The notes under the pieces are model-generated. The model did not search any database, was not told the DNA's origin, and saw only the letters and a program-made list of their open reading frames with translations. The position numbers and the translations under genes were made by a program. Shown here one piece after another: positions 5,301 to 55,013 of a DNA stretch of 64,000 bases (position 1 is its first letter; each line of letters begins with the position of its first letter). Source of the stretch: a bacterium (GTDB lineage: Bacteria > Hinthialibacterota > Hinthialibacteria > Hinthialibacterales > Hinthialibacteraceae); assembly GCA_963662285.2 (NCBI GenBank), contig CAXXMV010000006.1:192001-256000 (forward strand), in the 5' to 3' direction.

Positions 5301-6366
5301 TTTCGGTGTGATGCACACATCCTTAAATACCCTGGCATCAGCAGGTGATAATGCCCGTGCTATTTCTAAAGTAAACGAGACTGTCTACGCTCTATTGGGA
5401 GATGGTTCGATAGTTAAAGTTGCAGGTATTGGCAAATTGCCTAAAGATAGCAAAATCGTAAAAGCAAGTGCAGGCTCAGCACGGGACATTGAAGTTATTA
5501 GTGATGATCCTTTCGCAGCCTACGTCCTTTTTGGTAACGGTTTGGTAATTTCTTACGGAAATGCAACATTCTTCGGCGACATTGGAACCCCGGATGCAAG
5601 CATTCCTAGAGTTCCTATCGAAGAGGGCAGTTCCATAATGTTCCTTGACATAAACAATAACGGCGTGCGTGACACTGAAGATGCCGATGGAAATGGAATA
5701 CTTGACATCTCTGTTGGTCTTAACGGCGTTCTTGAGACTGAAGATACCGGCATCGAAGGCATTGCCGGCTCCGCAGGAAATGGCGTGCTGGATGAAGAAC
5801 AGATATTTAATATGTCGCAAACTGATCAAGGTTTCGGCTTTGATATCGCCCGCGACCTGGAACTTGTTATTGGAACAGATGGCGCTGTTACCGGCTATGT
5901 TATTATGGACGGTCTTGGCGTGATGTGGCCCTACGGTTCCGCCGTCAATAACGTAAATATCAGACCTCAGGATACTAATGGTATCGCTTTCAGTGATCAG
6001 TTCCGGTCTTTTGAATTGATCCTTGTGGATGGTCAGATTGTTGATTTCATCAGTCTAAAGGGTAATGGCGAGTTATTCGCTATGCCAAGCGATCAGGGCG
6101 GCGTCCTTGGCGCTGGTCCATCAACTGATGCAACTTCTTCAGGCTTCCTTTCATCTGATCAATATGGAATCACTACATTCGGATTCGACATTGCCCGTGA
6201 TCTGGAAATGTGTAAAACAGACAGCAATGGTGATGGCGTAATCGATTATAATGATGGATTCTATGTATTGGATGGTCTGGGCGGTATTCATGAATTAGGC
6301 GGAGCAGCTGCAATTGAAGGCGCGCCGTTCCTCGGATTGGATATTGCAGTTGACTTGGAATTCTAA
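2323..6366 (+). CDS. Large secreted/surface protein (1347 aa) with tandem Ig-like domains, DxDxDG Ca-binding loops and C-terminal FGFDIARDLE repeats
   Basis: Signal peptide ending VSA-Q; repeated G.A(D/E)PYS and D.AGN.S Ig-like motifs; DINNNG, DADGNG, DSNGDG; GGAGG RBS; own terminator. Confidence 0.75.
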   Translation: MMYHKNGLFFAVNVLVVLILFAAIAPTTVSAQSDSAARVAIQGDAEEFGDVLLVKDGDNVIIYGLAGAVSTSGKVTVTADTIEPIIVNASFMGHFPSREKSPIIITDGANLESAQISFVKSGSLQTVTGTIPLNINSPDVKKALQDYSEELGKVMRGEKASIEKGTPPHILVDIVPETSATASSVGKVLLTQRLIVQGGGDNVTYNLVDQIEGISGAGLDPPIQSFPAFSKIGVYGVPVDVDNPNLQLRVYSIDTTGFVAGQFASNGYFYPFTIQNVNSSNVDEIKKGNVDSGISTPPVSDIFYLRITDGDNVFLATIANDITAAIEGDVTVVNNNAANAAGVDAIAILSGVADPYSVVTAYGGNDVESEWLASGEADGSGAFSISIPSTAPFNIDTNEFGVYASRTQVYLGLSDPFGNESSSLVEVLTDNELVVTESPVATPQPDGTMIVAGRTEAGAIILVDGRTKDGTEYYFSGAAKADADGAYAIISAIPYFDYKVTIVDQAGNSITTSAVADQTADAPSNLTATADFPYIVVTGTAEPYSSIITYGFDAGVVPENPVVSETLPLGAFYLGGSSLEFPETTAKADANGAFSLKVPHSVGRYIYLKAFDPAGNGSSYVPLELNDAEGDPLGEASVGFDSIAFINNISGVKDIITGRTINLTNNLPVSGVVVGIYRTTSQNAVGLPFVDQLAKPVAVNADGTFSLTIPDRSLDTNEFIEQFLLVAFTKAADGTLTDVGYILINKNDGLDRVGPSIGFTILASDIVLRQGGAGFPDMMDIRGILPSGSGSMKDIPADALAYVCVLADGNADGDIDVNSSSTYIVDFKPLNASIPGMALPIPGVSNLNLGYNYWNAKTQKVVGESEVFIAYIDAVGNFSPSPVRVKLDVEIADPDISKIAVNGSSIFAEEDAVEETNLKIGETTVSIFGSSDKTSLIATARAYINGGFAVVGLSIDQDYVYIVATDYAGNQSNVVKVKVTDPVKDTDFMVLDSFGVMHTSLNTLASAGDNARAISKVNETVYALLGDGSIVKVAGIGKLPKDSKIVKASAGSARDIEVISDDPFAAYVLFGNGLVISYGNATFFGDIGTPDASIPRVPIEEGSSIMFLDINNNGVRDTEDADGNGILDISVGLNGVLETEDTGIEGIAGSAGNGVLDEEQIFNMSQTDQGFGFDIARDLELVIGTDGAVTGYVIMDGLGVMWPYGSAVNNVNIRPQDTNGIAFSDQFRSFELILVDGQIVDFISLKGNGELFAMPSDQGGVLGAGPSTDATSSGFLSSDQYGITTFGFDIARDLEMCKTDSNGDGVIDYNDGFYVLDGLGGIHELGGAAAIEGAPFLGLDIAVDLEF

Positions 6367-6388
6367 TCCACGCAAATAATATTATTAT

Positions 6389-6428
6389 GAGAGGCAAGGT
6401 TTAATAAACCTTGCCTCTCTTGTTTTTT
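6389..6428 (+). terminator. Rho-independent terminator
   Basis: GAGAGGCAAGGTTT-AAT-AAACCTTGCCTCTC perfect 14-bp stem followed by a T tract. Confidence 0.85.
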
Positions 6429-7150
6429 AAATGATTTTTAAAATCTCCTTATATTTAGGATTATCAAAATTATATTCAAGTATTATCATGTTTGGTTTTC
6501 TATAATTCAAATCTTTCCATCTTTTGAAATCTTCTATCAGAAAATTAATATGACAACTATCCAAACAATAAAATAAATAAAACTTATGAATACAAACCAT
6601 TTTTAAAGTATAGATATCATGTATTACTTACTAAAATAAATAATTGTTGTCATAAATAGATTTTTTTTAAGAAATAGTTTGTTTTAGGCATTTTGTTGTG
6701 CTATAGTAAATACTCTAAGTATATAGACTTGTCTTGATCTGGATGATAAATTACTATATGTTTATTATTCGGGTAGAGGGATAATGGAATATTATCATTT
6801 TTCGACCAGATTTTGGTTCAAACACCTCTTTGCAAATTCTATATATTCTTCCCTGACCTGAATTATTATATTTATATATATTTGTGTGGTTTTCAGAAAT
6901 GTTGGTTAATTATCACGGTTGATTTTGGAAAATGACTATGTATTATGGCATTTTCCAAAAGCGAATAATAACCGCATTAGGCAATCCACTCATAATAATA
7001 AATAAATTTTTTTGTTTATGAATATTTATAAAGATAGAATTGATAGCAAGAATATTCGTTTATGCTTTAGTTCCTGTTTATCTGCATATGTAACAATGAT
7101 AATTTTGGTAATCTGAATAATCTGATATTTTTGTAAATCGAGAGAATAAG

Positions 7151-9154
7151 ATGGCTATTTCTTACAGAAACCATAAAAAAAGGAACTTAAGGTTTAGAAT
7201 CTCATTTGTATGGGCTTTGGTTACCGCTTTGATCGTTTTTATGAGCGGATATGCTATACATTTAATTGTAAAAGTAAAACGTATCAATGATCTTGCTACC
7301 CATTCAATGCGTATTTCAACTCAGGTCTCTAACCTTTCCGCCATTAGAACATATCTTCTCGAAAAACCTGATGCTCCAGACAAAGAAGAAGCAGAAAGAT
7401 TATTGAAAATCCTACTGATTGGAGATCCATTTATTGAAAAAATGGTTCTGATAGATCAATTTGGTAAAATCCCCTTTACAATAATGCTGAGTGACAATGA
7501 AATGATGTTTCACCATGATAACCACTTGGCATCTTTACCCTTACAAGACCTGCTATCTGCATCAAAGCCGTCATTATCAGAAAAAGAATGGGAATATTTA
7601 ATACCCCTGTCTTTGGAATCGGATATTCCATGGGGCATGATGAAACTATACTGGCGGGCTGATGCAACATGGAAATTTTTCCATTTTATGAAATTGGGTA
7701 TAGCTTATATTACTTTGATATCATTTTTTATAGCTTATATACTGAGCTATTTTCTTATTGGAAGAACCTATGTTAAGGAATATCAAAGATTAAATAAAAC
7801 ATTAAGTATGATATGCGGCAGCGATTATTCTCAACGTATTGAGACGCAGACATATTCCAAGGGTATATCCGAAATCGGCGTACATATGAATCGCATCATC
7901 CATGAAATTGATGAAGAAAAGAAGAAAGCCGATATTCTTGATAATTCTTTGCGGCATATAGAACGCGGCGCCTCAGATTATAGGCGCGCATGTAATGATA
8001 AAACAACCGAATTAGAGTCTATGCGCCGTGAAATGCGCGAAGGGCTGCTGCAATTGTTCGATTTATTATGGTGTGGAATTATGGTTATTGATGATTCTTA
8101 TAATATCCATTTTATAAACCAACAAGCTGAACGATTGCTTCGCTTCGCCAGAATTGACGATTCAGTTTTGAATGATGAACGGGTAAAAGGCTGTTTGGCC
8201 TCTTTGGTCAATAATAGTGAAGTGGATGTCGTAGACGACCTTTGCGTATGGCCTCAGCCTTCTCTAGGACAATCAGTATCATGTCAACTACGCGCTTCTA
8301 AAATACCGACCGGCGCTAATGAACGCCTGTTTTTTGTTCTTCTACGTGAAGAATGCGGCTACCCCAAAAAACATAATTCTGCCTACTATTCAGAGCGGCT
8401 GGTCTTGGATTTCCTGGTGCATGATCAATCTATTGATAATCCCCAAACAGATTGCATGGGTTTTGAAAATGCCGATTTTAACGTAAAAGAAGATAGATTT
8501 AGAGCATGCCTGCGCAAATTAGAAACCTTCCATGCTTTAGAACAAGGAACTATGGGATCAGTCAGTTCAATCAGGTTGTCTACATGGCTGCGCCATCATT
8601 TCACCGATGAAGACTTATATTCCAATGGTCTGAAATTGGATGCCAACATGCCGGATATGGATATAACCTTGAAAATGCCTGAAAGAATGCTGCGGGAATT
8701 TATTGATTCTCTCTTAGTAATTGTAAGCCGCATGATTAATATTAATTCTACAACTAAAGCATCCAACTTTATGGTTCTTAGAACATCCATAGATTCCCGC
8801 GGTAAGCCGATGATTACTCTTTCTCTTCCCCGATTGAGGAAAATGCAGGCTAACCTGCTTCATGATGTTCTAAATGAACGTCTTTCACTACAAGCAATAG
8901 CTAATAATTCAGAAAGCAGTATGTTAGAAGATTTGGAATTGGATATCTGTTATTCCCTTTTCAGAAGCGTAAAACAACTATTGCATGCATTTATTGTCTG
9001 CGTATATTCAGAAAATAAAAAACTTGCTATGGTCCAATTAACTATTGAAAACCATATACTTACCAATAAACAAAATAAATCGGCTGAGGTAGAAGCCGAA
9101 GCTGAAGAATCTTTACAACCTAGACTTGTTCAGCAATTCTTAAGCAGATATTAA
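7151..9154 (+). CDS. Membrane sensor-like protein (TM-periplasmic-TM-HAMP-coiled coil-PAS) with degenerate kinase-like C-terminus
   Basis: Two TM helices; HAMP-like DYSQRI...EI..HMNRI; PAS-like GIMVIDDSYNIHFINQQAERLL; no H-box or G-boxes visible. Confidence 0.6.
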   Translation: MAISYRNHKKRNLRFRISFVWALVTALIVFMSGYAIHLIVKVKRINDLATHSMRISTQVSNLSAIRTYLLEKPDAPDKEEAERLLKILLIGDPFIEKMVLIDQFGKIPFTIMLSDNEMMFHHDNHLASLPLQDLLSASKPSLSEKEWEYLIPLSLESDIPWGMMKLYWRADATWKFFHFMKLGIAYITLISFFIAYILSYFLIGRTYVKEYQRLNKTLSMICGSDYSQRIETQTYSKGISEIGVHMNRIIHEIDEEKKKADILDNSLRHIERGASDYRRACNDKTTELESMRREMREGLLQLFDLLWCGIMVIDDSYNIHFINQQAERLLRFARIDDSVLNDERVKGCLASLVNNSEVDVVDDLCVWPQPSLGQSVSCQLRASKIPTGANERLFFVLLREECGYPKKHNSAYYSERLVLDFLVHDQSIDNPQTDCMGFENADFNVKEDRFRACLRKLETFHALEQGTMGSVSSIRLSTWLRHHFTDEDLYSNGLKLDANMPDMDITLKMPERMLREFIDSLLVIVSRMININSTTKASNFMVLRTSIDSRGKPMITLSLPRLRKMQANLLHDVLNERLSLQAIANNSESSMLEDLELDICYSLFRSVKQLLHAFIVCVYSENKKLAMVQLTIENHILTNKQNKSAEVEAEAEESLQPRLVQQFLSRY

Positions 9155-9364
9155 ATCGATTATCAATTTTTTTCGTTTATTATCAGAATTTTCTTTAAAA
9201 ACTGCATCTATACAGTCTTTTTCAATCATAAATCTGAACGATTTTATACTAACCGCTCTAATTCTTGGAATGATTTTCTGATATTTTTACATAATAAAAA
9301 GAAAATAATCTTTCGATAGAATGAACATAGGCTTCGGAAAATCAAGAACTTTTGAAAAAAAGTC

Positions 9365-9393
9365 TTGATTCTAATCGCGTGATACGGTATATT
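9365..9393 (+). promoter_or_regulatory. Putative sigma70 promoter for second HU gene
   Basis: TTGATT, 17 nt spacer, TATATT, with an A-tract upstream. Confidence 0.45.
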
Positions 9394-9474
9394 GATTGTA
9401 ATGTAAAGATTTCTATTTTCTTTGTTTTCATTTGAGTCTTATGTGTTGAGAGGTACTCTCTGTGGAGGGTTCTT

Positions 9475-9771
9475 ATGACCTGTACCAAAAAAGATATTGT
9501 TAAAGAAGTAGCCGCAAGGACAGGATTCGATATTTCCAGCGTTAAAGACATTGTTCAGACAATGTTTGACGCCATGGCCGAAGGTTTATCTGAGGATGGG
9601 AACATAGAAATTCGTAATTTTGGGATATTTAAAGTCAAGCAGACTCCTGAAAGACAAGCCAGGAATCCCAAAACCAGCGAGATAATTTCTGTACCCGCAA
9701 AAAAGCATATCAGTTTTAAGCCTGGTCAATTGATGAAAGAAAGGATTAATGATAACGGGGAAATAGAATAG
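9475..9771 (+). CDS. HU/IHF family DNA-binding protein (second copy)
   Basis: TKKDIV, IEIRNFGIFKVK, ARNPKT, FKPGQLMKERIN. Confidence 0.95.
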   Translation: MTCTKKDIVKEVAARTGFDISSVKDIVQTMFDAMAEGLSEDGNIEIRNFGIFKVKQTPERQARNPKTSEIISVPAKKHISFKPGQLMKERINDNGEIE

Positions 9772-9879
9772 ATGTTTAGCGATTAATCCAGTAAATTCTG
9801 ATTAACTGTTTGCATGGAAATTAATTTTTATTGTGATGAGCAGTGTTAAAAGTCCTGAGTACTTTTTGAAATACTAAAA

Positions 9880-10746
9880 ATGGATATCAAAAAAAAAATA
9901 CCTGACAGATTTCTTAGTATTATTGAAGAAATTCCCGCTATTCCGGATGTAGTGGTTAAAGTAATGCAACTCACTCGTAATCCGGATGTCACCGCTAAAG
10001 AACTTACCGACATGATATCCAATGATCCCGGTTTAACGGGAAATATCCTGCGTTTATGCAACTCAGCCTATTATGGAATTCCTCGAGTTGTTTCTTCTTT
10101 AAACCAGGCGGTAATGTATCTGGGATTTCATACTATTCGCAGCCTGGTTTTGACCTGCTCTATTAATAGTTTCTTTAATCCAAAACAGCCGGTCTATGGT
10201 TACGTCAATGGCGGCATCTGGCATCACTCGGTTGCATGCGCCATTACCAGCGAATTGATTTGCAACCATGTCCGGCCTGAATTGCATGATAGCGCTTTTA
10301 CTGCTGGTTTGCTGCATGATATAGGCCAGCTGATTCTGGGGATTTCCATAAAGGATACTTCAGAAACTATTATAGATATGATGATCAACGGCGGCGTCGA
10401 TGAACTTCAGGCGGAAAATGATTCCTTAGGATTCACTCATGAAGAATTAGGCGCTCATCTGGCTAATGCATGGAATTTTCCTGATGATCTTATTCATGCC
10501 ATCTGCCACCATCACCATCCTCTTGAATCTAAAACTCAAACTGAAATGACATCCATAATACACATTGCGGATGCCATGGCGCTTGAACTGGGTTTTGGTA
10601 TTGAACTGGAGCAGATGAAATTTAATGTTGATCCAGCTGCTTTAGCAAAGTTTGGCCTGAATCATGAGTGGCTCGCATCTATGCGTGAGGAGGCCTCTGC
10701 GCTTATCGACGAAAAAGCCACCCAGTTCATGGAAATCCTCAATTAA
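9880..10746 (+). CDS. HDOD domain protein
   Basis: IPAIPDVV, ISNDPGLTGNILRLCNSAYYG, W.HS, AFTAGLLHDIG, LA.AWNFP. Confidence 0.92.
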   Translation: MDIKKKIPDRFLSIIEEIPAIPDVVVKVMQLTRNPDVTAKELTDMISNDPGLTGNILRLCNSAYYGIPRVVSSLNQAVMYLGFHTIRSLVLTCSINSFFNPKQPVYGYVNGGIWHHSVACAITSELICNHVRPELHDSAFTAGLLHDIGQLILGISIKDTSETIIDMMINGGVDELQAENDSLGFTHEELGAHLANAWNFPDDLIHAICHHHHPLESKTQTEMTSIIHIADAMALELGFGIELEQMKFNVDPAALAKFGLNHEWLASMREEASALIDEKATQFMEILN

Positions 10747-35888: not shown

Positions 35889-37202
35889 ATGACGATGGAT
35901 ATTCGTTTGGCCTATGGAAAAGATGGATTGAATGTAAGCGTACCGGATGAAAATATCGCCGGAGTAATTCACATGAATCAGATGCCTCCGGTTGAAAATT
36001 TGAAAGAGTCTATTCTGGAATCCCTGCAAAATCCCATCCAGAGCGCTCCACTATCAGAAATCGCCCAGGGGCGCGAGTCGGCGGTAATTGTAATTTCCGA
36101 TATCAGCCGTCCGGTTCCCAACCAGGTGATCCTTCCGGTTATTCTGGATACTATCGAACAGTCTGGCATCCCCCGCGATAAGATTACCATCCTGATCGCA
36201 ACCGGCATTCATCGCCCTAATCTCGGTGATGAACTGATCGAGTTGGTAGGCGAGGATATAGCCAAGAACTACCGTTGCGAGAACCATTACTCCGAAGACC
36301 CAAACGCTACTGAGTACGTCGGCGACATCGGCGACGGCATCCCCATATATATCAATAAACATTACCTGGCCGCTGACTTGAAAATCGCTACCGGTCTGGT
36401 CGAATTGCATTTAATGGCGGGATTCTCCGGAGGCCGTAAAGCCATCCTGCCCGGCATCGCTTCACTGGAAACCATGAAGCATCTGCATGGATACCGCATG
36501 ATCCAGAAAGATACCGTCTGCAACGGTCTGCTCAAGGGCAATCCCTTCCACGAAGGATCGGTTGAAGTGGCGCGTAAAGTCGGGGTTGATTTCATCGTCA
36601 ATGTAACGCTCGACGAAGAGCGGCGCATCACCGGCGTCTTCAGCGGAGACCTCGAAGCAGCCCATGAACAGGCCTGCGAGCTGATCAGAAAGAGCGCGTT
36701 GGTCGAGATCGAAGCCGAAGCCGATATCGTCATCACCAACGGCGGCGGTTACCCGCTGGACAAGACGCTCTATCAATCCATCAAAGGTCTGGTCGGAGCA
36801 TTGGACGCGGTCAAATCAGGCGGCACGGTCATCATCGCCACCCTCAATGAAGAGGGCGCGGGCAGCGAAGATTTCGAAAAACTACTGCGCAGCCTGGATG
36901 ATCCAATGCAGTTTTATGATATCGTCATGGGGCCGGATTACGTCGCCAAAGATCAATGGATGATTCAGGAACTGGTTAACGGATTGCATCATTGCGAGGT
37001 GCTCTATTGCACCGAAAACATCAGCGATGAGGATTTGCGCGCTTACAACCTCAAACCAATCTCTACGGTAGAAGAAGGCATCGAGCAGGCCCTGGCCCGT
37101 CATGGTAAAGACGCCAGCATCCTGGTGTTGCCCGAAGGTCCATACGTGATTCCCAAGTCGCCCAATCCCAAACAGAACCTGTATTCATGGCAAACCGCCT
37201 AA
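35889..37202 (+). CDS. larA: Nickel-pincer-dependent lactate racemase family protein
   Basis: SDISRPVP, ATGIHR, HLMAGFSGGRKAILPG, GNPFH, GGYPLDKTLYQSIKG. Confidence 0.88.
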   Translation: MTMDIRLAYGKDGLNVSVPDENIAGVIHMNQMPPVENLKESILESLQNPIQSAPLSEIAQGRESAVIVISDISRPVPNQVILPVILDTIEQSGIPRDKITILIATGIHRPNLGDELIELVGEDIAKNYRCENHYSEDPNATEYVGDIGDGIPIYINKHYLAADLKIATGLVELHLMAGFSGGRKAILPGIASLETMKHLHGYRMIQKDTVCNGLLKGNPFHEGSVEVARKVGVDFIVNVTLDEERRITGVFSGDLEAAHEQACELIRKSALVEIEAEADIVITNGGGYPLDKTLYQSIKGLVGALDAVKSGGTVIIATLNEEGAGSEDFEKLLRSLDDPMQFYDIVMGPDYVAKDQWMIQELVNGLHHCEVLYCTENISDEDLRAYNLKPISTVEEGIEQALARHGKDASILVLPEGPYVIPKSPNPKQNLYSWQTA

Positions 37203-38957: not shown

Positions 38958-39037
38958 GGTTTTCTCCTCATAAAAATTGTGATTGGTATTTTAATGTAGA
39001 AACATAATAGAGTATCAAATTAGCGTTATGAAGTCAT

Positions 39038-39121
39038 GTAGGGTGAGTCGCGCTTTATCGACCCACTGCAAGCCACTATAGTCCACCATAATCGGTGGAT
39101 CATAAAACGCGACATCTCTAT
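39038..39121. repeat. Inverted pair of GTAG-type REPs
   Basis: GTAGGGTGAGTCGCGCTTTATCGACCCAC and reverse copy GGTGGATCATAAAACGCGACATCTCTAT; borders the AT-rich island. Confidence 0.65.
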
Positions 39122-39142
39122 GGGGCTAGATAAGACGATGGA

Positions 39143-40933
39143 TTAGAATATATTTCTGAAATAATCATGATTCAAACCCATTAAAGTTACAGCTTCTTTA
39201 ACATGCTTTTGTCGTAAGGAATTTGAATTATTAAGATCGGCAATTGTTCTGCTTACTAATAATAGTTTAACTTCCATCCTTTTTGTCAAATCAAGTCTTT
39301 TATAAATATCATTTAAATAATTCTTTGTTTCATCTGGAATGGCATTGGAATATTTTTTGAATTGTGCTTTGTCTTGAACTTCTGAATTAGTGTTTATATC
39401 ACTAGATTCAAGGAATCTTGCTCTTTGATATTGCCTTGCTTTAGTGATATTGCTTTTTATTGTGACCGTTGCGTAATTCTTGGCTTCTTCAAATGAATCA
39501 TCACATGATGATACAAAGACTTTCAAATCGATTCTGTCCATTAGAGGTTGGCTCAATTTGTTACGGTATTTATATATCTCTCTTCCTGAACATTTGCATT
39601 TTTTATACAGTTTCTTGTCAGGGTGATCTCTACATTGGGAATCTTTCCCAAAAAATGCTTTATTGCATACAGGGCAACAATAGTGACCTAACCAACCACA
39701 CTTACAAGGATTCATGGCTGCCACAAATATAAAACTACAAGGATATTCTAGTGTGCTGTGAACTCGTTGTACTTTGTTAACACGGTCATTTAATATGTTT
39801 CTTAATTTGTCAAGAGTATCTGGTTGAAGTAAGTTTATCTCATCGAATAATAGAATCCCATTATGTGCTAGTGAAACAAGGCCAGGAGCCGGGTATGGAG
39901 TTCCTCCTCCAAATAATGCGGCAGGAGTAGCGTTATGTACTTCTTGATATGGACGATTATTAATTATTTCATTCTCTTTTAAGTCTCCTTTTGCACTATA
40001 TATTTTATTAACTTCAAATATTTCTGATAGACTCATTTCAGGAAGAAGCTTCGTTGCAGCTTTTGCTAACATCGTTTTTCCGTGGCCTGGAGGACCTACT
40101 AGAAGAATATTATGACCACCAGCAAGAGCTACGGTCATTGCGCGTTTTGCAATTGATATTCCTTCAATATCTTTTAAATCAGGAACCTGACGTAAAATCC
40201 CTTTTTTTATAATATTCCTATTTTTTATCCTTGTTTTTCTTACAGATTTTATTCCTAAAATAACATTCCATACTTCCTGTAAATCATATGCCTTATAACT
40301 TTTTACATTTTTCTTAGTACTAGTCACAATGGAAGCATGAACTTCTGCATCTTCCGGTACAATTAAAGTAAATCCTTCTTTAACACATGAAATCATACCA
40401 AACATGCCTACCTCAGGTGAGATTATGCAACCTGAAGTTATTTCTAAAGTGCCAATTAACAAGTATTTATTTTTGTTTTCTGATAGCCTCTTTTTGTATT
40501 GTTCCACTCTATTTTTTTGGTTTATTAAGGCTTCTATATTTTTTATAATGCATGCTTTTTTATCTAAATCTCTTGGATTTTCTCCTAAATTTGTAATCTT
40601 TGTCTCGAATTCTTTGATCTTATCATTAATTTTATCTAAATTTTGTAAGATGCTTGCATGCAATAGTTGAATAGCTATTGGCAAATCTAGTCCAGAGGAA
40701 TTTTTAGGCGTCCCTGCTGGACTTAATGCTAATGTATAACCCTGATTATCTAATATATCAGACCAATCACCGTCTAATGTTTCAATCGCTTTAGATGCTC
40801 TTATAAAACCTTCTTTTACTACTTTACTTGCAAGACCTAGAATGCTAACACTGCTTCTATTCTCATCTTTTGTAGCCGTGAATCGTACTAAGTTTCCTTC
40901 TATACCGTGAATATCTGCACCATATATTTCCAT
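39143..40933 (-). CDS. Divergent ComM/YifB (Mg-chelatase-related, MCM-like) AAA+ ATPase
   Basis: ILGL...VKEG..R, LALSPA..PK..SGLDLPIA, AKRA..VALAGGHNILLVGPPGHGKTMLA, GGG..P.PGLVSLAHNGILLFDE, AAMNPCKCG, LSQPLMDRIDL, VSRTIADL...HVKEA. Confidence 0.9.
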   Translation of the reverse strand: MEIYGADIHGIEGNLVRFTATKDENRSSVSILGLASKVVKEGFIRASKAIETLDGDWSDILDNQGYTLALSPAGTPKNSSGLDLPIAIQLLHASILQNLDKINDKIKEFETKITNLGENPRDLDKKACIIKNIEALINQKNRVEQYKKRLSENKNKYLLIGTLEITSGCIISPEVGMFGMISCVKEGFTLIVPEDAEVHASIVTSTKKNVKSYKAYDLQEVWNVILGIKSVRKTRIKNRNIIKKGILRQVPDLKDIEGISIAKRAMTVALAGGHNILLVGPPGHGKTMLAKAATKLLPEMSLSEIFEVNKIYSAKGDLKENEIINNRPYQEVHNATPAALFGGGTPYPAPGLVSLAHNGILLFDEINLLQPDTLDKLRNILNDRVNKVQRVHSTLEYPCSFIFVAAMNPCKCGWLGHYCCPVCNKAFFGKDSQCRDHPDKKLYKKCKCSGREIYKYRNKLSQPLMDRIDLKVFVSSCDDSFEEAKNYATVTIKSNITKARQYQRARFLESSDINTNSEVQDKAQFKKYSNAIPDETKNYLNDIYKRLDLTKRMEVKLLLVSRTIADLNNSNSLRQKHVKEAVTLMGLNHDYFRNIF

Positions 40934-40934
40934 G

Positions 40935-41432
40935 TTATTTCCTCATATGTGGATGTTTTAAAGAATGATGATATTCGCAAAGAGTAATCAAATTATCAAT
41001 AGCATTTGTTCCGCCTTTAGACAAAGGAATAATATGATGTACATGGAGTGTGTCACTGCAATAAGCGTTAAACTCTTGGCATTCAAAATTATCTCTCTCT
41101 AAAACATTATTCCTTATTGAAATCCAATCTTCACCATAATCTTCTTTATTCAGTACATTTTGAGTAGGAATATTAATACTGCTAATACGACTCCCATCGA
41201 AATCTTTTAAGTCATTTAATTGTTTGTCTATGAGTTCGTTTTTTTCAATTAGAGAGTTATAAGTATCTGATTGCTGTACACAAGATTTATAAATAATCTG
41301 CGCATTATGAATTTCATTCTTATTATTTAAAAATCCAAATGAAAATAATCTGAGCCAAAAATCTTTATTTTTTGCCTGTTCTAATTTCTTATGGGCGCTT
41401 TTAATAGACTTTACTAATTGTTGTTTAGCCAT
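40935..41432 (-). CDS. HNH endonuclease with N-terminal helical/coiled-coil extension
   Basis: W..IR..VLERDNFECQ, LHVHHIIPLSKGGTNAIDNLITLCEYHH..KH. Confidence 0.9.
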   Translation of the reverse strand: MAKQQLVKSIKSAHKKLEQAKNKDFWLRLFSFGFLNNKNEIHNAQIIYKSCVQQSDTYNSLIEKNELIDKQLNDLKDFDGSRISSINIPTQNVLNKEDYGEDWISIRNNVLERDNFECQEFNAYCSDTLHVHHIIPLSKGGTNAIDNLITLCEYHHSLKHPHMRK

Positions 41433-41439
41433 TTTTTGT

Positions 41440-42534
41440 TCATAGATTAAAACTGTCTTGTATTAGAATTGCTTCTGAAAGAACATTTTTAAGAATTTTG
41501 AGTATTTGAGTTGAATCTATATCAGAGTATTTGATGTTTTTCTTTATTATGAAATGTTTAATACGATGAGTTTTCTCTATACAAATTATACTTGTAAGAT
41601 TTTTTGTTCCATGAAATTCTAGTATTTCAGATGAGATGTTTTCTTGAAAAGGAAGATTAATTTTTATGCATAATAATTCACTTTCAAAATTAAATATTAA
41701 ATTACCAATAATCTGATATTCACTATGATTAAATTTTATCTTGATTTTATCGAAATGCTTTTCTAATTCGAACGTAAGTTGTGAATCGATATTCATGTCA
41801 TGATAAATCTTATCTATTATATTGATTGATGCATTAGATTTAAGTTCGTTTATGGACGCTTCGTCATTGTTCATTGTTTCAAAATTTTTGTTTTGGGTAG
41901 GAGTATTATTTAAATCAATATTTTCATCATCATTGTTATCATCGAAATTAATAAACAAAGAATAAGGATCTTCTTCATCTTCTTCCAATGGTTTATTGGA
42001 TAAACCTTGAAGAAATCCATCATCACTATGATCTAAAACAGGATTATTATCTTCGTTGATATCATTGAAATTTTCATCTGGTAATTCAGGTAGATTAACT
42101 ATTTCAAATTCATTATCCTCATTTTCTATATTGATAGATTTAGTAGTCTCGGGATTTCTTGGATTGTTGATTTTTTTGTAGATTTTATCACATAATTTAT
42201 CATAAGAATCAGAAAAATTTCTATGGATTTTTAGGCGATTATTATGTTCTGTTTCATACGAGGTTACAATATTGGCTCTTTTAAGGCTTGCAATAGCTTT
42301 ATTTAAAAGAGTTGTTAATTCCTGTCTTTTCTTGCCCAGTGGAATAGTATCAACAAATAGGGTTAAATAATGTGAAACATGTTTTGTAATATCCGTGGAT
42401 TTACAACTCTTATGTTTGAAATCTAGAAGTGTTCCGACTATTGCAACTTTAGCAATGTCAATCGAAATATCTTGCATTTCAACGTTATTTAGTGAAAAAT
42501 AATCATCAAGGATTTCAAATGTATCCATTTGCAT
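41440..42534 (-). CDS. Hypothetical protein (helical N-domain, Asp/Glu/Asn-rich linker, YbjN/T3SS-chaperone-like C-domain)
   Basis: 364-aa ORF in very AT-rich DNA, GAGG RBS, 7 nt from the HNH gene; domain guesses come from sequence pattern only. Confidence 0.6.
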   Translation of the reverse strand: MQMDTFEILDDYFSLNNVEMQDISIDIAKVAIVGTLLDFKHKSCKSTDITKHVSHYLTLFVDTIPLGKKRQELTTLLNKAIASLKRANIVTSYETEHNNRLKIHRNFSDSYDKLCDKIYKKINNPRNPETTKSINIENEDNEFEIVNLPELPDENFNDINEDNNPVLDHSDDGFLQGLSNKPLEEDEEDPYSLFINFDDNNDDENIDLNNTPTQNKNFETMNNDEASINELKSNASINIIDKIYHDMNIDSQLTFELEKHFDKIKIKFNHSEYQIIGNLIFNFESELLCIKINLPFQENISSEILEFHGTKNLTSIICIEKTHRIKHFIIKKNIKYSDIDSTQILKILKNVLSEAILIQDSFNL

Positions 42535-42781
42535 TAATTCCTCGAACTGCTTATAAATTATTAAATTTTATAAAATACGAAATCACCGAATATTCAGTAT
42601 CGCATATTTTTTTTACATTTTCAATGATATTAATTACTTATTTCACATTATAATATTATGATGTGACGTATGTGGATTGATTAATTGGTCTTTAATCTAA
42701 TCCACATATCCCCCATAGACGGTTCGTTTATCAAGTAGATATGATATTATTATCCAAACACATTTCACGGGAGAACGAGCG

Positions 42782-45391: not shown

Positions 45392-45661
45392 ATGGATAAG
45401 AGAATCGCCATTCAAATGGAGAATATAATTGTGAATGCCACCGAAGAGATTATAGCGAAGATGGAAAAACTTCCTCCGGAAGAAATACGTGAGATTATTC
45501 AGCACTTTCAACCTGAAGATAAATTTTCGGACAAAATCACCCGTCAACTTCTTCAAGCAAAAAAAGACTCTGATGAAGGAATCAACATGAGTCCGGTTTA
45601 TAAAACCAAAGAAGAGGTTCAAGCCCATTTTGATCGCTTGGAAAGTAAAATTACTGTTTAA
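45392..45661 (+). CDS. Putative type II antitoxin
   Basis: Small ORF directly upstream of the YafQ-type toxin; C-terminal A..D...G....Y.T.EEV..H pattern resembles RelB/DinJ C-termini. Confidence 0.65.
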   Translation: MDKRIAIQMENIIVNATEEIIAKMEKLPPEEIREIIQHFQPEDKFSDKITRQLLQAKKDSDEGINMSPVYKTKEEVQAHFDRLESKITV

Positions 45662-45745: not shown

Positions 45746-46009
45746 ATGGATATAACTTTTCACAAGGACTTTGATAAGGCTCTTGAGAAATTCCCTCCGA
45801 AGACAAGAGATAAAGTTAGAAAAGTCCTTGATACTTTTCAAGATGATCCGCATGATCCCCAACTCGACAATCACGCCCTTCATGGCAATTTGCAGGATTT
45901 CCGATCAATTTCTGCAGGAGGAGACTTACGATTGGTTTTTGTGCAAGAAGATAACTACGAGTATGTACATTTCTATTTGGTTGGAACCCATAGTCAATTA
46001 TACGAATAA
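45746..46009 (+). CDS. Type II toxin, RelE/YafQ family mRNA interferase
   Basis: I.FHKDFDKAL, L.NHAL.G, RSIS..GDLRLVF, VGTHSQLY. Confidence 0.9.
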   Translation: MDITFHKDFDKALEKFPPKTRDKVRKVLDTFQDDPHDPQLDNHALHGNLQDFRSISAGGDLRLVFVQEDNYEYVHFYLVGTHSQLYE

Positions 46010-50785: not shown

Positions 50786-51238
50786 CTATGAGTTAATGGT
50801 CTTGGTTTCTTCTTCGCAGAACAATGTTTTGCAATGTGGAGAATTGGCTATGTCCTTTATGGTCATACTTCTCAAAACAGCCAACATTTGCTCTTGCGCT
50901 TCCTTAAATAAATTTCGTAAAGTACATTCCTTAGATTGATCGCAGTTCCTGATTTCCCAAGAACAGTTAAATTCAGCTACATCTTGATCCATTGCTATAA
51001 CAACATCAGCGATAGTGATTGTGTGGGGTGGTTTTTTAAAAACAAATCCACCGTGTTTTCCACGTATCGATTTTATTAATCCTGTTTTAACTAGATTTAG
51101 CATAATTCGAGCTAAATAGCTCTCTGAAGCTTGCACTGAATTAGCCAACTTACGGATCATAATCGGCTCATCAGTTGGTTGCTCCGCCATTGTGATTAGA
51201 GCATGTATTGCAAGATCAATGCTTTGGGAAAATTTCAT
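50786..51238 (-). CDS. Rrf2 family transcriptional regulator (three Cys, probably Fe-S)
   Basis: A.HAL, SESYL.RI, GLIKS.RG.HGGF, ITIADVV, C-x6-C-x5-C. Confidence 0.93.
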   Translation of the reverse strand: MKFSQSIDLAIHALITMAEQPTDEPIMIRKLANSVQASESYLARIMLNLVKTGLIKSIRGKHGGFVFKKPPHTITIADVVIAMDQDVAEFNCSWEIRNCDQSKECTLRNLFKEAQEQMLAVLRSMTIKDIANSPHCKTLFCEEETKTINS

Positions 51239-51247
51239 AGTCTTTTT

Positions 51248-51297
51248 ATAACCTGACTCTTTTTATCAAGTTATCATGAATCTTAAATCAATGTCAA
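51248..51297 (-). promoter_or_regulatory. Rrf2 gene promoter with overlapping palindromic operator
   Basis: Minus strand TTGACA...TGnTAACTT; ATAACCTGA-n9-TCAAGTTAT palindrome at 51248-51274. Confidence 0.6.
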
Positions 51298-51740
51298 GAC
51301 CGTTTTCCCATATATATAATCATTAATATCACTTGATGAACTACTGGATACGGATGCGATAACCTAACATATATAATTTAAGGTGATTACATAGTTTTTC
51401 TGGGCTTTTTTTGGCTCACGATATAATATGGAGTCAAATAATATAATTTCGCATAAATGAGGAAAAACCTTAAATTTAAAACCGTCTTTTGAATGTTGTT
51501 TATAAATCATGTTGAATTTATCTAGAAATTACGACAGTAGTATACCTAAAATGTCGGTGAATGTAACCCATAATATCATATTATTCAACTATATTTTAGA
51601 TTATCCATGTATATAATAATTTAGGCGCCCGGATGAGGACTAACATTGGCAATAAACATAGGTTACAATCTTTAACAATCAGTATTGCATCGGTGGGGTT
51701 TCAATTCTGAATCGAACATTCGAGCGATTCGATATATAAT

Positions 51741-52604
51741 ATGAGAAATATTCCCGGATATTTATTTAAGCGATTCTTTTTGCCTGTTATCATGTCCTTG
51801 TCGCTTGTCGTTTTGGATTCTGCGTCCGCCTATTCTGAATCATCGAGTGGAGACCGTCCTACTGCAAAAACTTTCCATTTTCTGCTTTGGCAGGGGCCTG
51901 CATCTTTTAATAAAAGCGCGACCAGTACGATAAATGATAAGTTGCCTCTGGAGAACGCATGGCATGATGGAAGGCTATTGTCGTATACCGGGCGGGAAAT
52001 TCGCATACTCAGCCCTAAAGGTGAGCCTTTGGAGAAATATCTTCGTATTGTTCTTAATTCTCATCCAGAATGCATCGAAGGCGATCCCGGACTAATTGAA
52101 CGCGTCGTCAATCAACAGAATAGAGAATATATACCTATTCTTCAGGTTAATTTTCAATCAGATAAACAACTGCCCGCCTTGCAGGGGGAGATTATATTTC
52201 TGGAGCAAAGTGATTTATGGCGGGGCCGTTTGGGAGTGGTTCATCCTGAATATGACATTGGCGGTCGCAGTCAAATTGAGTATTGGGCTAATAAGACCGG
52301 GCAAAATCCTGATACAGTAACCTTGTATTCTTCCAATGAAGCATTAAGGCACCTGTTTGTTGGTAGTATTGAGGCCGCCGCTATCCCTGAAGGCGTTTTG
52401 GAAACGTTCCTTCACGAACATAATAAAGATGGATTACTTGATAAAATTATTCGCGTTCCAATGCCCTATAAAGGTCATCCATCGGTGATTTTTCTAAGGC
52501 AGGATCTTTATCATGATCCACTTATGCGTACTCTGATCAGTGAAACCTGGCTAAGGGATCATTTTCCGGATAAATTACAACTGATTCCAGCCGTTACAAA
52601 TTGA
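51741..52604 (+). CDS. Exported hypothetical protein, possibly periplasmic-binding-protein type II fold
   Basis: Signal peptide; QGEII...DL.RGRLGVV, EALRHLFVGSIEAAAI resembles PhnD/SsuA-type binding proteins; upstream of a kinase. Confidence 0.45.
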   Translation: MRNIPGYLFKRFFLPVIMSLSLVVLDSASAYSESSSGDRPTAKTFHFLLWQGPASFNKSATSTINDKLPLENAWHDGRLLSYTGREIRILSPKGEPLEKYLRIVLNSHPECIEGDPGLIERVVNQQNREYIPILQVNFQSDKQLPALQGEIIFLEQSDLWRGRLGVVHPEYDIGGRSQIEYWANKTGQNPDTVTLYSSNEALRHLFVGSIEAAAIPEGVLETFLHEHNKDGLLDKIIRVPMPYKGHPSVIFLRQDLYHDPLMRTLISETWLRDHFPDKLQLIPAVTN

Positions 52605-52722
52605 ACAAATATCTACCCCTTTATCAATAACGATTATAATTATAGGGTTAACAACGCATTGACGCTCGTTATTTTGGTAATCGCTCTATCTTAAAATCTT
52701 TGGGATAATTCAAGAAAATATT

Positions 52723-54222
52723 ATGAATTCTGTAAAATTATTATCAGGAAATGCTTATTCGTTGTGGCGTGTTTCTATGGAGCCACTACTGATTCTGGAT
52801 GCCAAGGGAAATATCCAGGATTGCAATATCGTCGCTAAAGACTGCTTGCCGCTCAAAAAAGGCATAAGTTTGCTTGATATAGTACAAGAGAAATCTGATT
52901 TGCAGCATGCTTTACAAAACTCTGGTGATCAAGAAGATCCCAGGGTTATTGATCTCCTGACAATTGTTATTGATAATATGGAAATACGAACCAGGGCGCA
53001 AATAATATCTTTGCAGGATTCTGCGTCTCATAATGCCCCATGCTTCATTGTCAGCCTGAACCAGAACTCTCCTGAATTGGAATCGCTCGAAATAGCAGCA
53101 AAATTAAATGATCAGCGCGTGGAAAACCTGCGTGATAACCTGACTATCGTAACCAAGAAACTGCTCGAAAAAACTCTCCAGCTGGCCGAACAGAAAAATA
53201 AAGTTTCCACTATTATAAATGGCATGGGAGAAGGATTGATTGGATGCGATGATAACGGCGCCATCATCCATATAAATCAAGCGGCGCTTAATTTGTTTGA
53301 TTTGTCAGAACAAGAAATTATTGGCGCTTCCTTTGCCGAATACTTCTCTGAATTGACTAAATATATCGAATATCATCCTGGCAGCTCAATGCTCGTCGAA
53401 CAGAAAATATTCGATGTTCGGTATAATGTCAAAGATTTGCGCATCAGTGTTTCTCCAATTTTTGATGAAGAAGAACAGCGTAATGACGGATTCGTTCTAA
53501 TCGTGCAGGATCGTACGGAACAGGCTGAACTGGATCGTATGCGTTCTGACCTGATTTCTATTGTGTCGCACGAACTTCGTTCACCCCTCACTTCAATAAA
53601 AGGGTACTTGGATTTAATGATTTCCGGCGACCTGGGTGTTTTTCCACTGGAGATGAAGAGCTATATTGATATCATTTCCTCCAATACCAATCGTTTGGCC
53701 ACCTTGATAGATGATATGCTCGATCTGTCACGCATCGAATCAGGTAAATTGAATATGTCATTTGGCAAAGTCGAAATCAAATATCTCTGTGATCTGGTAT
53801 TCCTCACCATGAAACCACAGGCTGAGAAGAAAAAATTAAAATTCTCATTGGATGTGGAAGAAGGGCTGGCCATATCGGGCGACATAGACCGTATGCAGCA
53901 GGCTTTGACCAACTTGGTTTCAAATGCAATTAAATATACTCCCGAAGAAGGTTCTGTCATTATACATGCCATTCGCACCAAGGAATTTATTACAATCTCT
54001 GTTAAAGATAGTGGTTTTGGCATCAGTAATGATAACCAGAATCGTCTTTTCCAGAAATTCTTCCGGATTAAAAACGAAAAAACCAGAAATATCGGCGGTA
54101 CCGGCTTGGGTCTTTGCATTACTAAGTCGATAGTGGAAGCGCATGACGGCAAAATAATCGTTGATTCTGAAGAAGGCCAGGGATCAAATTTTATCCTTGA
54201 AATTCCTGCTTATCACTCTTAA
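52723..54222 (+). CDS. Cytoplasmic PAS-domain sensor histidine kinase
   Basis: H-box VSHELRSPLTSI, N-box NLVSNAIKYT, D.G.GI, GGTGLGL; two PAS-like regions. Confidence 0.95.
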   Translation: MNSVKLLSGNAYSLWRVSMEPLLILDAKGNIQDCNIVAKDCLPLKKGISLLDIVQEKSDLQHALQNSGDQEDPRVIDLLTIVIDNMEIRTRAQIISLQDSASHNAPCFIVSLNQNSPELESLEIAAKLNDQRVENLRDNLTIVTKKLLEKTLQLAEQKNKVSTIINGMGEGLIGCDDNGAIIHINQAALNLFDLSEQEIIGASFAEYFSELTKYIEYHPGSSMLVEQKIFDVRYNVKDLRISVSPIFDEEEQRNDGFVLIVQDRTEQAELDRMRSDLISIVSHELRSPLTSIKGYLDLMISGDLGVFPLEMKSYIDIISSNTNRLATLIDDMLDLSRIESGKLNMSFGKVEIKYLCDLVFLTMKPQAEKKKLKFSLDVEEGLAISGDIDRMQQALTNLVSNAIKYTPEEGSVIIHAIRTKEFITISVKDSGFGISNDNQNRLFQKFFRIKNEKTRNIGGTGLGLCITKSIVEAHDGKIIVDSEEGQGSNFILEIPAYHS

Positions 54223-54353
54223 TTAGAGTAGTTTACATGATTATGTTTATACTTGATGATAGTGAAAACAGGAAAAGATTGGTTTTTCATTGACCACACG
54301 CCATCATAAACCAATATTTATGTAATAACCGTGCGAAACCGGAAAATTTTTCC

Positions 54354-54382
54354 TTGACCAAAAAAACAGTATAACATATACT
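54354..54382 (+). promoter_or_regulatory. Putative sigma70 promoter for the flgN-like/kinase/regulator operon
   Basis: TTGACC, 17 nt spacer, TATACT. Confidence 0.6.
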
Positions 54383-54554
54383 GGCCTAAGGAGATATCTA
54401 CGATTATCTCAAGCCATTTCTATTTTGAGCCTTTATAAACTCGGTATTTGGGCAAGTAGGGTGAATTTTAATCTATTGACCTATTGTCGCCTGATTGACA
54501 GGCTTATGGATTAGGAATGATTGGATATCTATTTTGTTTTATAGAGTGAGAAAA

Positions 54555-55013
54555 ATGAACGACGCTTGTCTATTCCGTTTGATGAATGACGCCCTTCAAG
54601 AAGAGCATGATAAATATCTGGAAATGCTTGAACTCTCTAATGAACAAATATCTTTTTTAAGAGAGACGGAACCGGATACTATTAGAATAGCCGACTTGAT
54701 GAATAGAAAAATACAAATTGTGGAAGAGTTGCAGTTATTAGAACAAAAGCACCAACAGGTAAAGGATCAATGGCGTCTTGAATATCAGAATTATTCATCC
54801 GATGAACGGAACGTTATTAAGCAGATACGTGATTCAAGTATAGAGATGATAGAGCGCTTAAATAATTCTGAAGGAATTATTGCCAAGTCGATTAAGCGTC
54901 ACCAAGTGGATATCAATCAACAACTGTCTAAACTTAAGCAAGGCCGGAACGCTAATCAGGCTTATTTTGCGTATGAGAATTTACCGCCGCGCTATATCGA
55001 TAAAAAGAAATAA
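54555..55013 (+). CDS. FlgN-like flagellar export chaperone
   Basis: All-helical L..E...Y..ML.LS.EQ...L; ends GR.A..AY...PRYIDKKK; near the flagellar operon. Confidence 0.6.
   Translation: MNDACLFRLMNDALQEEHDKYLEMLELSNEQISFLRETEPDTIRIADLMNRKIQIVEELQLLEQKHQQVKDQWRLEYQNYSSDERNVIKQIRDSSIEMIERLNNSEGIIAKSIKRHQVDINQQLSKLKQGRNANQAYFAYENLPPRYIDKKK

Follow-up and report, generated by a model that had tools for sequence, protein, structure and literature searches.

The window analysed here, a stretch of 64,000 nucleotides (nt) from a bacterium of the phylum Hinthialibacterota (GenBank assembly GCA_963662285.2, contig CAXXMV010000006.1, positions 192,001 to 256,000), carries a compact operon of three minus-strand genes that we call A, B and C in their order. 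They encode proteins of 364, 165 and 596 amino acids (aa): a putative adaptor or sensor, a predicted HNH nuclease and an AAA+ helicase resembling ComM/YifB (Table 1). Only 7 nt separate A from B and 1 nt separates B from C, exactly as read in an earlier note on this DNA, which took the trio for a horizontally acquired module where a ComM paralogue has recruited a nuclease for phage or plasmid defence or for DNA processing. As far as computation reaches, that interpretation is supported: each of its refuting conditions that the analysis could address turned out in its favour.

The operon stands out by its base composition. Sliding GC content falls to 0.24-0.36 across 39000-42750, against about 0.45-0.56 in the flanks on both sides. 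The island as a whole (39123-42720) has 30.2% GC, against 44.0% for the 7.29-Mb genome; it lies in the lowest 0.12% of 24,195 genomic segments of 3.6 kb and ranks seventh from the bottom among distinct regions of the genome. GC at third codon positions is 0.19-0.22 in genes A, B and C, against 0.48-0.65 in neighbouring genes. The hand counts from which the earlier note had argued for an AT-rich island (11/60 GC at 40201-40260, 37/60 at 36601-36660) are exact, and the sliding drop and the genome-wide rank bear out the island itself. In addition, gene C in its present form is found at E ≤ 1e-100 in 0 of the 34 other genomes of the phylum. By its low GC and the absence of this ATPase form from the other genomes of the phylum, the island is foreign in origin.

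Table 1. Features of the cassette and its borders, with positions in the window.
Feature	Position	Strand	Description
Gene A	41440-42534	minus	364-aa putative adaptor/sensor: winged helix, acidic linker, chaperone-like domain
Winged helix	42160-42477	minus	Gene A residues 20-125, pLDDT about 90
Acidic disordered linker	41860-42156	minus	Gene A residues 127-225, pLDDT <50, LPELPDE motif
C-terminal alpha-beta domain	41446-41862	minus	Gene A residues 225-363, pLDDT about 86, modelled type III secretion chaperone/YbjN fold
Gene B	40935-41432	minus	165-aa predicted HNH nuclease, N-terminal half helical
HNH catalytic/zinc core	40947-41081	minus	Gene B residues 118-162
Gene C	39143-40933	minus	596-aa ComM/YifB-like AAA+ helicase of a distinct subfamily of about 590 aa
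Lon-like N-domain insert	40478-40639	minus	Gene C residues 99-152 (54 residues), subfamily-specific
Walker A, GPPGHGKT	40073-40096	minus	Gene C residues 280-287
Walker B, D364/E365	39839-39844	minus	Gene C
Enlarged embedded zinc finger	39590-39706	minus	Gene C residues 410-448
Left-edge repeat	39030-39125		Dispersed repeat of the host, REP-like; outside the cassette proper
Upstream control region	42643-42708		Palindrome, hairpin and promoter-like site

The same three genes recur together in distant DNA. Metagenome contigs scanned with an alignment of the subfamily-specific ATPase segment gave 17 loci, all with the ATPase. Directly upstream of it lies an HNH homologue (E 1e-31 to 1e-40) in 16 of the 17; the remaining contig begins inside the ATPase gene. 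Of these 16 gene pairs, 11 share an overlap of 20 nt, and in the other five the genes are at most 4 nt apart. A co-directional first gene of 300-500 aa precedes the HNH gene in every one of the 15 loci that leave room for it. A simple sequence search ties eight of these 15 first genes to gene A, and by alignment 14 of them share its C-terminal domain. No fourth gene is conserved beyond the trio, and the neighbours vary from locus to locus. The synteny that the earlier note suggested looking for is recovered outside this genome.

Gene C has the domain content of a ComM protein. Pfam recognises a ChlI N-domain, Mg_chelatase (1.3e-63) and Mg_chelatase_C, in the arrangement typical of ComM/YifB: a Lon-like N-domain, an AAA+ core in which a zinc finger is embedded, and a Mg-chelatase C-domain. 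Both ATPase motifs, Walker A and Walker B, are present. Its score against the ComM/YifB model TIGR00368 is 302.3 bits, below the cut-off of 362.4, and against PRK09862 it reaches 194, where the cut-off is 530. The genome holds a canonical comM on another contig (G000:C2:311129-312622, 645 bits), as the earlier note had anticipated for a paralogue; dprA, with matches on contigs C1 and C3, and yraN, on C2, are indeed outside the window. Because these three genes lie elsewhere in the genome, gene C is an extra, divergent copy. With its foreign composition and its absence from the 34 phylum genomes, this second copy does not behave as a vertically inherited single-copy gene.

A word-based search returned at least 119 relatives of about 590 aa, 44-60% identical to gene C and annotated merely as 'magnesium chelatase family' or 'ATP-binding protein'. 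Those with a named source belong to Sedimentisphaerales/Planctomycetota, Acidobacteriota, Hydrogenedentes, Thermodesulfovibrionales and Candidatus Electronema. We aligned 20 members of this subfamily with the canonical ComM of the genome, to which gene C is 34% identical. G280, P281, G283 and G285 and K286 of Walker A, together with D364 and E365 of Walker B, are invariant in all of them, and further catalytic residues are likewise kept. Two departures set the subfamily apart. One is the insert of the Lon-like domain, which the model shows as a hairpin of two antiparallel helices (99-115 and 120-152); the canonical ComM of the genome lacks it. The embedded zinc finger is about 26 residues longer than its canonical counterpart and contains six subfamily-invariant cysteines (C410, C420, C423, C434, C446 and C448); C420, C423 and C434 are extra, in a stretch without counterpart in canonical ComM.

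Structure prediction leads to the same relatives. The AlphaFold 2 (AF2) model of gene C has a mean predicted local distance difference test score (pLDDT) of 87.5 and a predicted template-modelling score of 0.84. Its top Foldseek match is a subunit of the ComM hexamer (8rxt_A, E 1.6e-35, template-modelling (TM) score 0.87, 26% identity), followed in the ranking by MCM subunits at about 1e-12. ComM is also its best solved relative by sequence (1.3e-51). On a quick maximum-likelihood tree, the 20 subfamily members are separated from 23 canonical ComMs, that of the genome included, by a long branch of length 1.7; the Shimodaira-Hasegawa-like approximate likelihood-ratio support is 94 for 22 of the canonical rows, one rogue long-branch row (L071) lowering the support of the split. 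Absence from the 34 phylum genomes and this separation on the quick tree both uphold the view that gene C was not inherited vertically. Judged by its sequence, gene C is a member of a distinct ComM subfamily with inserts of its own.

A scan of a collection of genome contigs with the full-length ATPase alignment yielded, among the matches listed, only canonical ComM at 27-41% identity and no subfamily locus. Searches of phage records (50,697), plasmid records (72,556) and IMG/VR brought no subfamily member; all matches there are canonical-like and at most 39% identical. One viral contig from IMG/VR (L094:4439-5790) encodes a ComM-like ATPase 39% identical to gene C, a value above that of typical canonical ComMs. 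No HNH gene lies upstream of it, and it may represent an intermediate lineage.

Gene B belongs to the Pfam HNH family (PF01844; 5.5e-10, 39.7 bits with a cut-off of 21.4). In 16 aligned orthologues, C118, C125, H132, H133, N143, N147, C152, H155, H156, H160 and H162 are invariant. Since the whole core of histidines, asparagines and cysteines is kept throughout, gene B looks active, and we predict a catalytically intact HNH nuclease. Its helical N-terminal half has a conserved hydrophobic stretch. Among solved HNH proteins, sequence similarity is weak even for the nearest: a phage HNH enzyme, Cas8f-HNH fusions, McrA and IscB reach about 1e-5 to 1e-4. The HNH search brought up 18 further small proteins (160-173 aa); for seven of them the contig has exactly the length of one that gave an ATPase match, hinting at more linked pairs.

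Gene A has no match in Pfam, NCBIfam or PADLOC, and a word-based homologue search with it returned only itself; its relatives came from the metagenome loci and from a profile search. The AF2 model, built with 13 homologues, divides it into three parts. The winged helix resembles PadR-like proteins and F93 (VIA-align Z 8-8.9). The linker is strongly acidic, with 30 D/E against 3 K/R in 99 residues, and a motif of the type [LI]Px[LI]P[DE] is common to most aligned homologues. In the C-terminal domain, VIA-align gives Z scores of 10-12.8 with a root-mean-square deviation of 2.5-3.4 over 110-123 residues, and the top 20 matches are all type III secretion chaperones or YbjN-like proteins; Foldseek returns ExsC (5.7e-4, probability 1.0, TM 0.58-0.67). 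A feature-based comparison, to be read as a lead only, places YbjN, DUF2170, CesT and TY-Chap1 at 0.85-0.88. At the level of sequence, the domain matches no Pfam family at E ≤ 0.1, CesT, YbjN and TY-Chap1 included, and its profile matches no solved chain at E < 0.3. That the domain adopts the fold of class I type III secretion chaperones and YbjN is well supported by the model, and the term 'chaperone-like' in the earlier note proves apt. In a published analysis (PMC9503650), this fold class has been proposed as a peptide-binding part of other conflict systems.

The C-terminal domain recurs in varied company. Its profile retrieved 96 representatives among 1.84 billion proteins, nearly always as the C-terminal part of a protein 300-600 aa long. 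What stands in front of it changes. In 13 proteins from the loci we found NusA_N in three (6e-16), Mrr_N in one and EVE in one. A scan of 83 of the 96 representatives, setting aside 12 fragments and one protein of 1981 aa, gave Mrr_N in seven, NusA_N in three and receiver domains in two. Single cases among the 83 comprise, among others, HARE-HTH, DUF4357, topoisomerase-type zinc ribbons and a weak CarD/TRCF RNA-polymerase-interacting domain (3.6e-4). The reader types found on gene A relatives are known from modification-dependent restriction enzymes and fit a role in defence.

The borders of the island are of different kinds. The earlier note had placed a doublet of the repetitive extragenic palindromic (REP) type at the left edge. 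A dispersed repeat does lie there, with 25 matches in its own genome including itself (73-96% identity); its own fold is unexceptional (z -1.57). Members of this repeat family measure about 80 nt, or about 25-30 nt where partial; they occur on contigs C1, C2, C3, C4, C6 and C8, two of them 174 nt apart on C4. The hairpin claimed for the right border is real (42669-42708, -11 kcal/mol, z -5.06, with none of 200 shuffles equally good). A smaller palindrome stands next to it (42643-42666, z -2.16), and the stretch holding both is a single occurrence in the genome. The best minus-strand promoter-like site (42676..42647, TCCACA-18-TATAAT, 10/12 match) overlaps this stretch; a promoter and terminator scan of the region found such sites at chance level and no terminator-like site. 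A search of sequencing runs listed no RNA run with a match; the two full matches are from a single sample, perhaps the one behind the assembly. At the ends of the island neither direct nor inverted repeats stand out, and a 9-nt inverted match seen by eye (39113-39121 and 42711-42719) may be due to chance.

Next to the island are a LarA-type racemase, a weak GH32-like protein below the Pfam cut-off and a zinc alcohol dehydrogenase; maf, rpoD and an HDOD protein are farther out in the window. Given these identities, the neighbours are rightly called metabolic, as in the earlier note, and only loosely 'sugar metabolism'. For the left neighbour gene, two relatives have orthologues, at 72% and 57% identity; the other window genes do not adjoin these orthologues, which leaves no empty site to compare.

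At 3 kb from the island, an open reading frame (ORF) for a YafQ-type toxin (45746-46009, Pfam 2.5e-8) follows directly on an 89-aa ORF without family match (45392-45661). They are probably a toxin-antitoxin pair, in a second patch of low GC (0.35-0.41). Other stretches of lower GC in the window (0.33-0.40) cover 6000-10000 and 51000-55000, and a 667-aa ORF at 7151-9154 belongs to no Pfam family. Six regions of the genome are more AT-rich than the island, with 24-30% GC over 3.6 kb (G000:C2:761401, C8:620701, C6:1453501, C8:114601, C1:505201 and C8:1174801); they are candidate foreign islands.

What the data show directly is a conserved order of the genes, their domain content, intact motifs and a foreign origin. 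The cassette is foreign, rare and found across phyla, its genes are tightly coupled, its catalytic residues are intact and its readers are swapped. As these traits fit together, we read the trio as a mobile conflict system made of a sensor, a nuclease and a motor. We consider it, with a probability of roughly 55%, to be a self-contained, horizontally moving operon that provides restriction-type defence against invading DNA. The defence role is suggested by the architecture and by one clear defence neighbour: on an 86-kb contig, a complete IetA/IetS pair (PADLOC 2.8e-72 and 7.9e-29) stands directly downstream of the trio (L120:9582-13061). Two toxin genes count on the same side: one for a PIN toxin in another locus, and the YafQ-type gene of the window.

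We now propose how such a cassette could work, with the labour split over three proteins: gene A as sensor, gene B as nuclease and gene C as motor. ComM is described (PMC11612176) as an ATP-dependent hexameric motor encircling double-stranded DNA, with the Lon-like domain forming a ring. The AAA+ ring of gene C, derived from ComM, would likewise assemble on DNA in an ATP-dependent manner and then translocate. The product of gene B, a gene translationally coupled to gene C, would ride on this motor, docked either to the subfamily-specific helical arm or to the enlarged zinc finger. This arm is carried by the Lon-like domain, the ring-forming one in ComM, and would be a plausible place for docking. 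Translocation would in this way be converted into DNA cutting. Specificity would come from the reader of gene A, which may bind a DNA feature or a transcription complex. Its acidic linker could act as a DNA mimic and, with the chaperone-like domain, could keep B, C or both inactive until the reader finds its target. Complex formation, this order of events and the defence role are inferred. Complex prediction with the C-domain of gene A, the ATPase and the HNH protein scored 0.31, 0.30 and 0.32 (mark 0.32, controls 0.00); we count it neither way.

A more specific version, which we put forward only tentatively and hold somewhat less probable than not, sees here an undescribed anti-phage or anti-plasmid family. 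ComM would have been turned into a restriction motor, and an adaptor of chaperone fold with swappable readers (winged helix, Mrr_N, EVE, NusA_N) would license the HNH nuclease only on marked or actively transcribed invader DNA. If true, this would be the first ComM-type motor in immunity and the first type III secretion chaperone-like domain serving as safety catch of a nuclease.

Several observations weigh against the defence reading. The neighbour scan covered eight loci (L116, L118, L119, L120, L122, L126, L128 and L129), and the IetA/IetS pair is the only recognised defence system that adjoins the trio in them. One locus has a PIN toxin and a DnaB-like helicase, another dinB and a Rep ORF2/G2P-like protein. 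Housekeeping genes or genes without family match surround the others. Because only one of the eight loci has a defence neighbour, and the wider surroundings in the window are rpoD, maf and metabolic genes, the enrichment near defence islands that the earlier note proposed to look for is not shown. The family is rare: that of gene C was not found in 401 sampled Acidobacteriota genomes, with three candidates scored per genome, nor in 93 genomes of another phylum. NusA_N and the weak CarD/TRCF domain point to the transcription machinery, not to foreign DNA, and the 83 representatives in which most readers were counted are proteins without known genomic context. Finally, the first gene of L124 lacks the chaperone-like domain (hhalign probability 0.2).

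L124 is a case of its own. Its first gene (L124:308-1537) has an N-terminal zinc ribbon with PCI/winged-helix matches, and its HNH ORF starts late (115 aa). It may be a variant form of the system.

The transcription-related readers would find a natural place in an accessory module for DNA repair or transcription-coupled maintenance, in which gene A would recruit the helicase and nuclease wherever RNA polymerase has stalled or DNA is damaged or recombining. NusA_N in three of 13 first-gene proteins (6e-16), the weak CarD/TRCF domain of one representative, the locus adjoining dinB and the action of ComM in recombination, as given in PMC11612176, all agree with it. A sporadic, rare distribution and a foreign composition do not, and canonical comM, dprA and yraN are already elsewhere in the genome. 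Reader-domain swapping, moreover, is a trait of conflict systems and not of housekeeping repair. We find such a module unlikely.

Distinctly unlikely, in our view, is that the trio serves a small mobile element in its replication or maintenance, with A as winged-helix origin binder and helicase loader, C as MCM-like replicative helicase and B as nicking or processing nuclease. In favour of such a module are the structural closeness of ComM to the MCM helicases, a foreign cassette that moves between phyla, the Rep ORF2/G2P-like protein and the DnaB-like helicase that each lie near one related locus, and the unique palindromes upstream of the operon. Yet neither in the window nor in the scanned loci does an integrase, partition or transfer gene accompany the trio; the island has no notable terminal repeats, direct or inverted, and phage records, plasmid records and IMG/VR gave matches of at most 39% identity with no subfamily member among them. 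Mrr_N, EVE and NusA_N are also atypical readers for an origin binder. The same Mrr_N and EVE domains, which read DNA modifications and suggest recognition of a target, count against an addiction module akin to toxin-antitoxin systems, where the HNH protein would be the toxin, gene A the antidote and the ATPase a regulator, with no anti-phage role. The operon is indeed tight, small and mobile, with palindromes at its promoter and toxin genes near it in the window and in L116, and gene A joins a winged helix that might serve autoregulation to a highly acidic linker and a chaperone fold. A fully conserved ring helicase of 596 aa with invariant catalytic residues would be costly for so simple a module, and we judge it very improbable.

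Restriction-type defence by a mobile cassette is the reading we favour. DprA-like and MCM-like proteins are found in defence systems. The one role of ComM known to date is that of a branch-migration helicase in natural transformation, and a mobile, nuclease-wired subfamily would show a second. Gene A and its relatives present naturally exchanged readers on an otherwise constant frame, hence a test bed for how motor-nuclease systems choose their targets. The reading predicts that the chaperone-fold domain and the acidic linker are a built-in inhibitor of the nuclease or the motor. The family is rare and occurs mostly in uncultured environmental bacteria.

Among named systems the trio has no direct counterpart. 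In PADLOC-DB 2.0.0 (2023), no model matches the ATPase or gene A over its full length; matches are of the level of a P-loop or an HNH motif, the best for the ATPase being RtcR (1.8e-4, P-loop region only). This agrees with the earlier note, which expected no hit for a novel system. A literature search, paper supplements falling outside its scope, brought up no account of an HNH nuclease joined to a ComM-like ATPase. From ComM/YifB itself (8RXD, 8RXT), the branch-migration helicase of natural transformation, gene C keeps the fold and the Walker A and B motifs. It differs in being only 26-34% identical, in scoring below the TIGR00368 cut-off, in its hairpin insert and longer zinc finger, and in being a second, foreign copy paired with an HNH gene (16 of 17 loci).

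Septu also joins an ATPase (PtuA) and a small HNH nuclease (PtuB) in one operon, and was the example cited in the earlier note. However, PtuA is an ATPase of the ABC/SMC type, whereas gene C is an AAA+ ring helicase, and no PtuA or PtuB model is among the PADLOC matches of any of the three proteins at E ≤ 0.1. In type II Zorya, the HNH protein is ZorE. Gene B matches the PADLOC model of ZorE weakly (1.5e-8) and only in its HNH part, scores 14.5 bits against the ZorE equivalog NF041791 (cut-off 600), and its operon has no ZorAB-like genes.

The closest defence relative of the gene C motor is BrxL of BREX. Its published description (PMC10164562) presents it as a defence factor with an MCM-related AAA+ ring, a Lon-like domain and ATP-dependent DNA binding. 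Its domain order is different, and it belongs to a large BREX operon that also encodes a methyltransferase and PglZ; there are no BREX genes beside the trio and no match to a BrxL model in PADLOC. For gene A, the likeness is to the class I chaperones of type III secretion and YbjN ('TY-chaperones'), whose fold its C-terminal domain shares over the whole domain. Unlike them, this domain has no sequence-level match to Pfam models or solved chains, is fused through an acidic linker to a DNA-binding domain, and is tied to a helicase-nuclease pair instead of a secretion system.

The closest working analogy is McrBC together with other type IV restriction systems. Their layout has a ring-forming AAA+ motor and a nuclease on its own, with a DNA reader at the N-terminus that can be swapped. 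The trio appears to combine the same elements, with Mrr_N and EVE readers on gene A relatives as in type IV restriction, and gene B weakly matches PADLOC models of type IV restriction (1.8e-6) and McrA (8.2e-5). Nevertheless, the motor is ComM-like and not McrB, the nuclease is of the HNH and not the McrC type, and the reader is carried not by the motor but by a third protein with a chaperone-like domain. Within motor-nuclease defence, what the cassette would add is a new motor and a new adaptor.

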